Assembly: GCA_037310415.1 (NCBI GenBank)
Contig: CP147780.1
Coordinates: 1 to 64,000 of the forward strand
Direction: 5' to 3'
DNA: 64,000 nucleotides
DNA from: Candidatus Atabeyarchaeum deiterrae
Lineage (GTDB): Archaea; Asgardarchaeota; Atabeyarchaeia; Atabeyarchaeales; Atabeyarchaeaceae
Shown here: one piece after another, positions 32,414-35,908 of the stretch
Layout: each line of letters opens with the position of its first letter
Numbering within the stretch: position 1 is the stretch's first letter
The notes under the pieces: generated by a model
Database searches by the model: none
What the model saw: the letters and a program-made list of their open reading frames with translations, nothing else
Told to the model about the DNA's origin: nothing
Program-made: the position numbers and the translations under genes

Positions 32414-35404
32414 GTGGCAGTCAAGGAGATTCCAAAACAGCTTTCGCTTCGAGAGCTTGAGCAGAGAACCTTGGAAGAGTGGCGTGTCAACAAGATATAC
32501 GAGAAAGCAAAGGAGAAGCTGAAAGGAAAACCTCGCTTCAACTTCATAGATGGACCGCCGTACACCACCGGTTCGATCCACTTGGGGACAGCTTGGAACA
32601 AGATAATGAAAGACATAGTCCTGCGATTCAAGAGGATGAGAGGATTTGAGGTAAACGACACACCTGGATACGATATGCATGGGCTACCTATAGAAGTCAA
32701 AGTGGAGCAGGAGCTGAATATCAAAAGCAAGAAGGAAATAGAGACGAATGTCGTCAAGTTCGTAGAGAAATGTAGAGAGTTCGCGCTTAGCAACTTAGAT
32801 ACGATGAGTCAGCAATTCAGTGAGCTTGGAGTTTGGATGGATTGGAAGAAACCCTACATGACGCTGAGCGATTCATACATAGAAGGAATATGGAAGACAA
32901 TCAAACTTGCCTATGATAGGGGCTACGTGTATAGAGGAGTGAAGGTTCTCGAAGTCTGCCCAAGATGTGAGACGGCGCTCGCGAGACACGAGCATGAATA
33001 TCACACCGTCACCGACGTTTCAATATTCGTGAAGTTCAAGATTAAGTCAAGACCAAATGAATTTTTGTTAGTGTGGACTACTACACCGTGGACATTGCCA
33101 GCCAACTTGGCAGTTATGGTTCACCCGGACTTCGAGTATGTTAAGGCAAAGGTTGGGACCGAGGTTTGGGTAATAGCCAAAGCTATGGCAACAACCTTGC
33201 TGCAAGGCGTGTTCGAAAAGAACTTTGAGGTTCTCGAAGAATTCAAGGGAATGGATCTCGAGGGATTGAAATATGAGCACCCCTTAGTACAGGAGGTCCC
33301 GATTCAAGCTGAACTCGACAAGAAGTACAAGAAAGCACATACTGTTGTTCTTAGCGCTGACTACGTGACTCTTGAACAGGGAACCGGGTTGGTTCATTGT
33401 GCGCCAGGGCACGGACCTGAAGACTTCGAAGTGGGAAAGCAGAACGGCTTGCCTCCGTTCTCACCTTTGGATGTTTCTAAGTTTTCGTCTGAAGGCGGCA
33501 AATATGCAGGCATGTTCCCCAAGAAAGCTGACGAGCTCATAATCAACGACTTGGAGCACAAAGGGCTACTAGTATACAAGGGCACCATAGAGCATGAATA
33601 TGCTCATTGCTGGAGGTGCAAGAGCCCGCTTCTGTTCCAAGCCACAAGCCAATGGTTCATAAAAGTGGTCAGCTTAAAGGATGAAATGCACAAAATGAAC
33701 AGTGAAACATCATGGGTTCCTGACTGGGCTGGCCACCAGTGGTTCAAGAACTGGATTGATGGACTACAGGACTGGTGCATATCTCGACAGAGATACTGGG
33801 GAGCCCCCTTACCCATGTGGATCTGTGACAAGTGTGGGCATGTGGAGGTTCTTGGTTCAAAGCAGGAACTTGTCGCAAAATCTGGCAAAACACCAAAGGA
33901 GCTCCACAGACCTTGGGTTGACGAAGCAACCTGGAAATGTGAACAGTGCCATGGAAAAGGTACGAAGCGTAGAATATCCGATGTCTTAGATGTTTGGCTT
34001 GACAGTGGATCATGCATATGGGCTACGCTACCCGTCACAACCGGAATGGCAGACTATGATGACTGGAAGGAACTGGATTTCATAATTGAAGGGAAGGAAC
34101 AGATAAGGGGATGGTTCAATTCGCTCATGTGCTCAAGCATGGTTGCGTACGGCAGGTGGCCATACAAATCAGTTTACATGCATGGATTCATGTGCGATGA
34201 ACAAGGACGGGAAATGCACAAGTCGCTCGGTAACTATATTGAACCATCAGAAGTCATACCAAAACACGGCGTCGAATCATATAGGTTCTATGTCTCCAAA
34301 TCGGCGCCACCAGGCGAAGATATACGCTTTAATTGGAAGGATGTCGCGGACACGGAGAGGTTCTTAAACATTACTTGGAACGTCTACGTATTCGCATCAA
34401 CGTTCATGGCTGAGGCTGGATTCAATCCTGGCAAGGTCAGGAGCACAAAAGTTCAGCTTCTGCCAGAAGATAAGTGGATACTCTCGCGCACAAACTCCGT
34501 GGTCAAACAGATAACCAACGAACTGGATGGCTACCAGATACCCACTGTGACGAGGCTACTGCAGGATCTGATTGTCAAGGATTTGAGCAGGTGGTACATA
34601 AGATTAATCCGAGCAAGGACATGGGTCACGACTTCAGGCCCAAGCAAGACAGCGGCACTCAACACATTATTCAATGTCCTCGAGAAACTGACTTACATAC
34701 TCGCGCCAATAACTCCCATACTCGCTGAGGCTTTGTACCAGTCGCTTGTCAGACCGACCATGGCGAATCCACCAGAAAGCGTGCATCTTTGCGAGTGGCC
34801 AAAGCACTCAGAAGAACTAATAAACACTGACCTTGAAGCAAAGATGGACCACGTGCGGGAAATAGTCGAAGGAACACTGGCAATAAGACAGGAAGCAAAA
34901 GTAAAACTAAGGTGGCCTTGCAGGAGACTTGTGATAGTTCCCAAGGAAAAAGAATGGGTCGACATACGTGAGCTCCTGGAAGTTGTAAGAGACCAAGCAA
35001 GTGTCAAAGAAGTACATATCCTCAGCAAACTCTTGGCAAAGGACAAGACTGAGGACCTGAGAGAAAAGGAAACCTCGACATGCACGATATACCTTGACGT
35101 ATCAACCACTGAAGAACTTGAATCAGAAAGACTCGCAAAAGACTTCACGCGACAAGTTCAATCACTCAGAAAGAAATATGGATACATTGTGACCGACAAG
35201 ATAGAGCTAGTAGTAGCGAGCAAGGACAAACAAATACTCGAAGGGCTCGAGAAACAAGAACAACAAATCAAGAGCAAGATTGGAGCGGTGAAAATAGAGG
35301 GACTTGGGGAAATGCCAGAAGAACTCAAAGACTACGACGCTAAAGGCGAATTCAAATATCAAGATGAGAAGATTCAGGTAGCGTTCCGACGAAAGAAAAC
35401 TTAA
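32414..35404 (+). CDS. ileS: Isoleucine-tRNA ligase
   Basis: DGPPYTTGSIHLG, GYDMHGLPIE, WTTTPWTLPAN, GTGLVHCAPGHG, DWCISRQRYWG, EQIRGWF, EMHKSLGN. Confidence 0.97.
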   Translation: MAVKEIPKQLSLRELEQRTLEEWRVNKIYEKAKEKLKGKPRFNFIDGPPYTTGSIHLGTAWNKIMKDIVLRFKRMRGFEVNDTPGYDMHGLPIEVKVEQELNIKSKKEIETNVVKFVEKCREFALSNLDTMSQQFSELGVWMDWKKPYMTLSDSYIEGIWKTIKLAYDRGYVYRGVKVLEVCPRCETALARHEHEYHTVTDVSIFVKFKIKSRPNEFLLVWTTTPWTLPANLAVMVHPDFEYVKAKVGTEVWVIAKAMATTLLQGVFEKNFEVLEEFKGMDLEGLKYEHPLVQEVPIQAELDKKYKKAHTVVLSADYVTLEQGTGLVHCAPGHGPEDFEVGKQNGLPPFSPLDVSKFSSEGGKYAGMFPKKADELIINDLEHKGLLVYKGTIEHEYAHCWRCKSPLLFQATSQWFIKVVSLKDEMHKMNSETSWVPDWAGHQWFKNWIDGLQDWCISRQRYWGAPLPMWICDKCGHVEVLGSKQELVAKSGKTPKELHRPWVDEATWKCEQCHGKGTKRRISDVLDVWLDSGSCIWATLPVTTGMADYDDWKELDFIIEGKEQIRGWFNSLMCSSMVAYGRWPYKSVYMHGFMCDEQGREMHKSLGNYIEPSEVIPKHGVESYRFYVSKSAPPGEDIRFNWKDVADTERFLNITWNVYVFASTFMAEAGFNPGKVRSTKVQLLPEDKWILSRTNSVVKQITNELDGYQIPTVTRLLQDLIVKDLSRWYIRLIRARTWVTTSGPSKTAALNTLFNVLEKLTYILAPITPILAEALYQSLVRPTMANPPESVHLCEWPKHSEELINTDLEAKMDHVREIVEGTLAIRQEAKVKLRWPCRRLVIVPKEKEWVDIRELLEVVRDQASVKEVHILSKLLAKDKTEDLREKETSTCTIYLDVSTTEELESERLAKDFTRQVQSLRKKYGYIVTDKIELVVASKDKQILEGLEKQEQQIKSKIGAVKIEGLGEMPEELKDYDAKGEFKYQDEKIQVAFRRKKT

Positions 35405-35440: not shown

Positions 35441-35652
35441 GGGCCCGTGGCTTAGCCTGGCTTACTTTGGGATCATACTTTCGTTTGTTCCCTTTGTCCA
35501 GACAAAGCGACAGTTGATGGCGACAGCCGTCGCCGCGAAGGCCTTATACGACCACGCTTTGTACAAAGCCTGAGACAGCCGTAAGAGTTAGGGTAATCGG
35601 CTAGGCGATTGCCTCTTCGGTAAGATCGTGGGTTCGAATCCCACCGGGCCCA
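35441..35652 (+). tRNA. tRNA-Ile(UAU) with four introns (20a/21, 28/29, 37/38, 44/45)
   Basis: Removing 35463-35503, 35512-35539, 35549-35576 and 35584-35623 gives a 75-nt cloverleaf: GGGCCCG TG GCTT AGCCTGGCTA AAGC G ACGGC CTTATAA GCCGT AGATC GTGGG TTCGAAT CCCAC CGGGCCC A. All four stems pair fully, and BHB-type central helices occur at each junction. Confidence 0.8.
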
Positions 35653-35908
35653 TCACTACTTTTCCAAGTTTTTTCATTTTGATTCTCTTCAGATATGCGC
35701 TAGGTCGTACAAGAAAAATGTTTTGCGGTGGAGTGTCCCCTCTTGGCCGCTCAGTGCGGAAGAGACGTTATATGACCTTTACAAGATGGAGAGATAAGCC
35801 TTGAGCCAGTTTCATTCTCTGAACTCAGAAAGAGCTACTTAATCGTCTAAACAGTTCACATCTTTCATCATAAAAAAAGGAGGAAGTTCTTGCAGTGCAT
35901 TCTTTGCT

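Follow-up and report, generated by a model that had tools for sequence, protein, structure and literature searches.

The window analysed here is a stretch of 64,000 nucleotides at the start of contig CP147780.1 of Candidatus Atabeyarchaeum deiterrae. Within it a gap of 504 nt separates a 996-aa ORF on the forward strand (32414-35404) from a 723-aa ORF on the reverse strand. The 996-aa ORF is ileS, and it stops 36 nt upstream, on the same strand, of a 212-nt segment that looks like a tRNA gene at both ends. At the 5′ end an acceptor strand leads through U8 into one strand of the D-stem and a D-loop with GG; at the 3′ end a T-arm is followed by the acceptor strand's complement and a discriminator A. 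The original prediction, made from the letters of the window, was that the segment is a single tRNA gene interrupted by four BHB introns, at 20a/21, 28/29, 37/38 and 44/45, and that it collapses to a fully paired 75-nt cloverleaf when 41, 28, 28 and 40 nt are removed. This layout stands, being the only strict solution and the one with which the orthologues agree. The spliced 75-mer is read by ARAGORN as tRNA-Ile(tat), with all 21 stem pairs formed. The features of the locus are as follows.

32414-35404, forward strand: ileS (isoleucine-tRNA ligase), 996 aa; TIGR00392 at 914.5 bits, above the cut-off; Pfam tRNA-synt_1 and Anticodon_1
35441-35652, forward strand: tRNA-Ile(UAU) gene, 212 nt, five exons and four introns
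35441-35462, forward strand: exon 1, 22 nt; acceptor 5′ strand, U8, D-stem 5′ strand and D-loop up to 20a
35463-35503, forward strand: intron 1, 41 nt, at 20a/21 in the D-loop; central helix CTGG/CCAG, 4/4 pairs; HBh′
35504-35511, forward strand: exon 2, 8 nt; A21, D-stem 3′ strand, G26 and positions 27-28
35512-35539, forward strand: intron 2, 28 nt, at 28/29 in the anticodon stem; central helix AGCG/CGCG, 3/4 pairs; a 6-bp hairpin inside; HBh′
35540-35548, forward strand: exon 3, 9 nt; positions 29-37, with U33, the anticodon UAU (34-36) and A37
35549-35576, forward strand: intron 3, 28 nt, at the canonical 37/38 site; central helix CTTA/TGAG, 4/4 pairs, one of them G-U; hBH
35577-35583, forward strand: exon 4, 7 nt; positions 38-44
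35584-35623, forward strand: intron 4, 40 nt, at 44/45 in the variable loop; central helix GCCG/CGGT, 4/4 pairs, one of them G-U; HBh′
35624-35652, forward strand: exon 5, 29 nt; positions 45-48, T-arm, acceptor 3′ strand and discriminator A73
35660-35680, forward strand: three oligo-T runs just 3′ of the tRNA gene

The three internal exons are as short as had been foreseen, 8, 9 and 7 nt, and CCA is not encoded at the 3′ end of exon 5. In the spliced tRNA the anticodon loop has 7 nt, with UAU between U33 and A37; the body is class I with A73, and the usual invariant bases are kept. The splice register matters: when the exon boundaries are shifted 2 nt to the left, the product is a mispaired tRNA-Leu(taa) with two anticodon-stem mismatches and a short variable loop, and that candidate was rejected. 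In the unspliced DNA of 35441-35652, neither ARAGORN nor Rfam (at the gathering threshold and at permissive E-values as well) finds a tRNA. The oligo-T runs downstream, judged by sequence alone, are likely to be an archaeal transcription stop.

What does the segment do? Very probably, to judge from its sequence and its relatives, it is a single-copy, functional tRNA-Ile(UAU) gene that serves as the decoder of AUA and whose four introns are spliced by EndA and RtcB. A precursor of about 212 nt would be transcribed, possibly together with ileS just upstream. An (alpha-beta)2 EndA would then cleave each 3-nt bulge beside a 4-bp helix behind its second base, and RtcB would join the five exons into the canonical 75-nt tRNA, to which CCA would be added afterwards.

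Splice motifs and the order of splicing

We applied the BHB rule in this form: the central helix is 4 bp long, a 3-nt bulge adjoins it on either strand, and cleavage falls behind the second base of a bulge. All four of the predicted central helices, with their 3-nt bulges, fall in this register, including the one-mismatch helix at 28/29. Over the four introns 15/16 central pairs form at the exact register against 2-6/16 in slid registers, a comparison in which the boundaries were partly chosen by the BHB rule and for which a search of shuffled sequence, given below, is the fairer control. The parts of the motif that flank the central helix are less regular. Intron 1 has an inner helix, h′, of 2 bp and then 4 bp, and the outer helix, h, is absent; intron 4 likewise has an h′, of 3 bp, and no outer helix. 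In intron 3 the outer helix is the anticodon stem, with 3 bp that become 5 bp once intron 2 is removed, and the inner helix is nearly absent. Intron 2 is the weakest motif, as its central helix lacks one pair and its inner helix is a marginal 2 bp that includes one G-U. None of the four introns has a strict hBHBh′ motif, each being without h or having an h′ of only 1 bp, and by sequence all four are classed as relaxed BHBs, three HBh′ and one hBH. Each intron also folds into a hairpin of its own, as had been proposed, in the predicted structure.

Some repeated elements lie among these motifs. The sequence CTTTGT-CCAG-ACAAAG at the junction of intron 1 and exon 2 (within 35490-35510) is by itself a hairpin of 6 bp, in competition with intron 1's central helix. 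A similar palindrome, GCTTTG-TA-CAAAGC, is found in intron 3 (within 35555-35571), and the ACAAAGC of the intron 1/exon 2 junction recurs inside intron 3, by duplication or by coincidence.

Must the introns be removed in a fixed order? The original prediction held that the motifs reuse overlapping exon nucleotides, so that splicing has to be ordered. The reuse is real for the outer context, where outer helices and cloverleaf stems clash with neighbouring motifs: nt 39-42 are both an anticodon-stem strand, in the outer helix of intron 3, and part of the central helix of intron 4, and nt 23-25 belong both to the D-stem and to the central helix of intron 2. It does not extend to the splice sites proper, however, because no nucleotide is shared among the four central helices and their bulges, and imposing all four at once gives a fold that lies 14.5 kcal/mol above the minimum. 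Since all four cores can be drawn together, the idea of an obligatory order is not sustained, and the predicted energies favour removal of the outer introns first without forcing it. The predicted cost of forming the core in the primary transcript is 1.1 kcal/mol for intron 1, 8.3 for intron 2, 4.0 for intron 3 and 1.4 for intron 4; that of intron 2 drops to 1.7-3.4 kcal/mol once intron 1 has been removed, and the cheapest predicted path removes introns 1, 4, 2 and 3 in turn. A preferred order with the outer introns first is plausible on this model, in which the D-loop and variable-loop introns would be accessible in the primary transcript and the anticodon-arm introns would become so once those had been removed.

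How easily might a four-intron pattern arise by chance? With the end exons fixed, we searched exhaustively for any three internal exons that give 4 D-stem and 5 anticodon-stem pairs, U33 and a purine at 37; to count as strict, a solution could have no central helix below 3/4 pairs and needed a total of 15/16 or more. Exactly one strict solution exists in the real sequence, and it is the predicted layout. An equally good solution turns up in 7/1500 dinucleotide-shuffled interiors and in 6/1500 random genomic interiors (0.4-0.5%). When the criterion is loosened, so that each central helix need only have at least 3/4 pairs, some four-intron solution is obtained for 271/1500 shuffles and 161/1500 genomic interiors (11-18%). 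The pattern in the single sequence is better than chance (~0.5%) and not overwhelming, because a four-intron reading has many degrees of freedom; the orthologues settle the question. One might suppose from the looser figures that genuine tRNA ends, perhaps remnants of a gene, have come to lie around unrelated sequence in a chance arrangement. At the observed quality the frequency is the far smaller one, and two other species conserve the internal exons, with changes that are compensatory, so we hold a chance arrangement to be exceedingly improbable.

Orthologues in the Atabeyarchaeia

The comparison set consists of three species-level Atabeyarchaeia genomes: the present one, Atabeyarchaeia-1 and LC30. 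In all three the tRNA-Ile(UAU) gene lies directly downstream of ileS on the same strand, with gaps of 36-49 nt. The nearest relatives of the present ileS among public genomes are in two ‘Promethearchaeati’ MAGs, one of which is the Atabeyarchaeia-1 chromosome. The two orthologues of the tRNA gene are these.

CP147779.1, 36840-37083 (L002 6028-6271): Atabeyarchaeia-1 tRNA-Ile(UAU), five introns of 34, 42, 28, 29 and 36 nt
L001 6032-6210: LC30 tRNA-Ile(UAU), three introns of 35, 29 and 40 nt

Under the same cutting rule both orthologues give a 75-nt tRNA-Ile(tat) with an identical anticodon loop and the full set of 21 stem pairs. The Atabeyarchaeia-1 introns are at 17/17a, 20a/21, 30/31, 37/38 and 44/45; their central helices have, in that order, 4/4, 4/4, 4/4, 3/4 and 4/4 pairs, and the intron at 30/31 is a full hBHBh′. 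All three species have an intron at 20a/21, 37/38 and 44/45, and the boundaries there are set by the BHB rule together with the cloverleaf. The extra D-loop intron is found only in Atabeyarchaeia-1, the present gene and that of LC30 being contiguous there. LC30 is without the anticodon-stem intron, and its exon sequence runs uninterrupted over the 28/29 junction, which fixes that junction in the present gene. Over the 12 introns of the three genes 45/48 central-helix pairs form, versus 6-25/48 in slid registers, a figure that is partly circular as some boundaries were chosen by the rule.

The exons have changed in the way expected of a folded RNA. Among the 21 stem pairs 6 vary across the species (canonical pairs 4:69, 5:68, 7:66, 13:22, 27:43 and 49:65), and every one of these has changed on both sides; none is broken. 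Position 46 tracks the 13:22 pair as well, with A beside U:A here and G beside C:G or U:G in the other two species, and this covariation supports the variable-loop boundaries. The mature tRNAs are 81-87% identical, and most pairs of introns at the same site are near the shuffle baseline. Two introns stand above it: that at 20a/21 in the D-loop, with 79% identity between the present gene and Atabeyarchaeia-1 (z 5.7), and that at 37/38, with 76% identity (z 3.7). The anticodon-stem introns, at 28/29 here and 30/31 in Atabeyarchaeia-1, are 2 nt apart and have no significant similarity (z 0.6). Among the 400 Asgard genomes searched, we found no uninterrupted tRNA-Ile(UAU) gene with this anticodon arm.

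Could the gene be a real tRNA-Ile(UAU) gene with a somewhat different layout? The insert in the anticodon stem might be divided into 13 + 15 nt, or one or more junctions might be shifted by 1-2 nt. GCGAC occurs twice (35507-35511 and 35520-35524), so that central-helix pairing is no different for a 15-nt intron, the 35525-35539 of tRNAscan-SE; under relaxed criteria the search also yields a variant at 37/38 with a 1-nt shift and 3/4 pairing; and the displacement of the Atabeyarchaeia-1 intron to 30/31 points the same way. Against this, the remaining 13 nt would need a splice motif of their own and an exon of 3-5 nt, the strict search gives a single solution, and the 28-nt version contains a 6-bp hairpin, as does the 28-nt intron of Atabeyarchaeia-1. 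We judge another layout quite unlikely, and retain introns of 41, 28, 28 and 40 nt for what follows.

Two observations on the flanks and ends of these introns and genes may be recorded. A block, AAAACTTAATAAC, that extends across the double stop codon of ileS is conserved among the three Atabeyarchaeia. The penultimate base is A in 12/12 introns of the three orthologues, which means that the first base of the 3′ bulge is always A; the introns end in AC, AA, AG or AT, and the first base is A in 7/12. As for expression, it is possible from the arrangement of the two genes that ileS and the tRNA are co-transcribed, or that a TATA-like element overlaps the ileS stop codons. Four metatranscriptome runs from the same studies as the genome placed no reads on the tRNA gene, a result that is neutral as to its expression.

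Published annotation and the decoding of AUA

The locus has been listed before. In Supplementary Data 4 of Valentin-Alvarado et al. (2024, Nat Commun; PMC11291895), tRNA #1 of Atabeyarchaeota_2 is Ile TAT at 35441-35652, called by tRNAscan-SE with 52.4 bits, introns at 35525-35539 and 35549-35576, an R2DT total of 2 and the label ‘possible pseudo’. The window is therefore the beginning of that complete genome, Atabeyarchaeia-2. The ends are identical to ours and intron 3 is the same; the row records neither the D-loop nor the variable-loop intron, and of the 28-nt anticodon-stem intron only a part. The expectation that standard annotation would miss the gene is thus borne out for ARAGORN and Rfam, but not for tRNAscan-SE, which gave its exact ends. 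The published two-intron model would keep inserts of 41 nt in the D-loop and 40 nt in the variable loop. We reject that model because these inserts carry 4/4 central helices, diverge between species next to conserved flanks, and vary in length, from 35 to 42 nt in the D-loop and from 36 to 40 nt in the variable loop.

How is AUA read in this genome? The TiaS models PF08489 and PF22641 have no match in the genome, which is a single contig, and PF08489, the TiaS FLD model, has none in either of the other Atabeyarchaeia genomes. The same model matches 14/22 other sampled Asgard genomes and 4/4 archaeal control genomes. According to the table in PMC11291895, the CAU anticodons of Atabeyarchaeia-2 belong to Met and iMet only; a heavily interrupted CAU tRNA gene could be hidden in the genome. 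We found one UAU tRNA gene. AUA is used 24.6 times per 1000 codons and accounts for 35% of Ile codons, and 36 AUA codons lie within ileS itself. Given no TiaS match, one UAU gene and this codon usage, the gene is probably the sole AUA decoder of the genome, rather than a pseudogene, and, on the same genomic grounds, it is probably essential. Charging by IleRS and reading of AUA are its candidate functions, and the genomic context is that of an ileS neighbour in three species.

The label ‘possible pseudo’, the two introns and the 52.4 bits of the published row raise the alternative that the gene is a decaying tRNA pseudogene, with inserts that are junk and never removed. Such a gene sits poorly with the spliced product, in which no stem pair is broken and the invariant bases are present, and with the retention of the gene beside ileS in three species, where the six stem changes are compensatory and none is disruptive. 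It would also leave a much-used codon with no other UAU gene found and no TiaS match. We consider a pseudogene very unlikely. A functional tRNA-Ile(UAU) gene is the reading we prefer; what is likely the only reader of a third of the Ile codons has been published as a two-intron ‘possible pseudo’.

Several further observations bear on the tRNA set of this genome and its relatives. PF08489 was not found in 8/22 of the other Asgard genomes (families f27, f20, f12 and f28), including three small, near-complete genomes of one genus; TiaS-free, UAU-based decoding of AUA may be widespread in Asgard archaea. A tRNA-Ile(GAU) is missing from the published table for the present genome, yet ATT and ATC together make up 45 per 1000 codons. 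On the forward strand at 459473-459655 of the whole-genome sequence (G000), just upstream of tRNA-Ala(CGC), is a segment of 183 nt whose acceptor strands are GGGCCCG/CGGGCCC; its T-arm is good, and it holds roughly three inserts. Spliced in one way it gives tRNA-Ile(GAT) and in other ways different anticodons, the ambiguity arising because one of the inserts sits inside the anticodon loop. The published tRNA table also lacks a 124-nt segment on the reverse strand, at 1514979-1515102, whose acceptor pairs over 7 bp and whose T-arm is good (GGGGTTCGATTCCCC).

In eukaryotes, modification of the tRNA-Ile(UAU) anticodon is intron-dependent. One may imagine a wider scenario in which the Atabeyarchaeia swapped the agmatidine (TiaS) route for a eukaryote-style tRNA-Ile(UAU), the 37/38 intron is needed for modification of the anticodon, and maturation would be held in check by the stepwise removal of the four or five introns, perhaps from a transcript shared with ileS, in such a way that the supply of IleRS is tied to that of the AUA decoder. 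We regard this combination as unlikely.

Splicing enzymes and other multi-intron tRNAs

The genome encodes two EndA paralogues, of 238 and 198 aa, each with an N-terminal and a catalytic domain, and the ligase RtcB (coordinates on G000).

215530-216246, reverse strand: EndA, 238 aa; matches the catalytic half of two-unit enzymes
625319-625915, forward strand: EndA, 198 aa; matches the structural half of two-unit enzymes
982706-984013: RtcB ligase

The 238-aa protein is closest to the alpha subunit of Aeropyrum pernix (E 1.9e-46). Its alignment is free of gaps through the Crenarchaea-specific loop (CSL), with K and K at the positions of K44 and R46, and the aligned Tyr, His and Lys motifs of the active-site region are conserved, the His being the residue changed to Ala in 3AJV. 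Experiments have shown that the loop and its lysine confer broad specificity (PMC3241643), and the loop is reported to be conserved in Asgard EndAs (PMC5829648). By its sequence the EndA of this genome is of the alpha/beta, broad-specificity, CSL-bearing type. The view that splicing here needs an EndA of relaxed specificity accordingly has both sides in its favour: no motif is a strict hBHBh′, and an alpha/beta enzyme with the loop lysine is encoded.

Is a gene with four introns exceptional? The original prediction cited three as the archaeal maximum, which was the state of knowledge in a 2014 review (PMC4033280) and has since been overtaken. Four introns are recorded in PMC11291895 for the Lys-UUU (tRNAscan-SE) and Trp-CCA (R2DT) tRNAs of Atabeyarchaeia-2 and for the Ile2-CAU and Arg-UCU tRNAs of Freyarchaeia, and 92-95% of the tRNA genes in the Atabeyarchaeia and Freyarchaeia genomes described there have introns. 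A motif-free census of intervening sequences in Asgard tRNAs (Goswami et al. 2026, bioRxiv 10.64898/2026.10.13.758758) puts the maximum at five per gene and finds that most genomes have a two-subunit EndA. It also states that predicted pseudogenes were left out of the counts, so a gene flagged ‘possible pseudo’ was probably uncounted there. The Atabeyarchaeia-1 table of PMC11291895, with 40 tRNAs, contains no Ile tRNA at all, and the five-intron tRNA-Ile(UAU) of that genome appears to be unannotated in it.

The kind of gene is therefore not new, as four- and five-intron tRNA genes are on record for the lineage and four-intron genes for this genome, and for that reason the general picture of archaeal tRNA introns is unchanged. 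What is new is modest: a corrected structure, the argument for a sole AUA decoder, and a five-intron orthologue absent from the Atabeyarchaeia-1 table. The corrected gene and that orthologue help to complete the decoding sets of complete Asgard genomes. With four relaxed motifs in 212 nt, the gene also offers a compact natural test substrate for the reach of CSL-type EndA and for the order of splicing.

Three known systems are close enough to be instructive. The multi-intron tRNAs of the Thermoproteales (Sugahara et al. 2007/2008; PMC4033280) resemble the present gene in their non-canonical introns in the D-arm, anticodon stem and variable region, in their relaxed motifs, and in an (alpha-beta)2 EndA with the Crenarchaea-specific loop. 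They differ in a stated maximum of three introns, compared with four here and five in the Atabeyarchaeia-1 orthologue. The pre-tRNA-Ile(UAU) of ARMAN-2 and the Micrarchaeota (Fujishima et al. 2011, PMC3239211) is the closer match in decoding: TiaS and tRNA-Ile(CAU) are both lacking, the tRNA-Ile(UAU) contains an intron, and in ARMAN-2 AUA is read by tRNA-Ile(UAU), as in eukaryotes. There, however, a single strict canonical intron is paired with a three-unit epsilon2 EndA, whereas here four relaxed introns are paired with a two-subunit EndA. The same isoacceptor with several introns, including sites in the D-arm and anticodon region, is found in the red alga Cyanidioschyzon merolae (PMC9602550). 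That gene differs in being eukaryotic and nuclear, with three introns (D-arm, anticodon arm and T-arm), and in having been studied for intron-dependent pseudouridylation.
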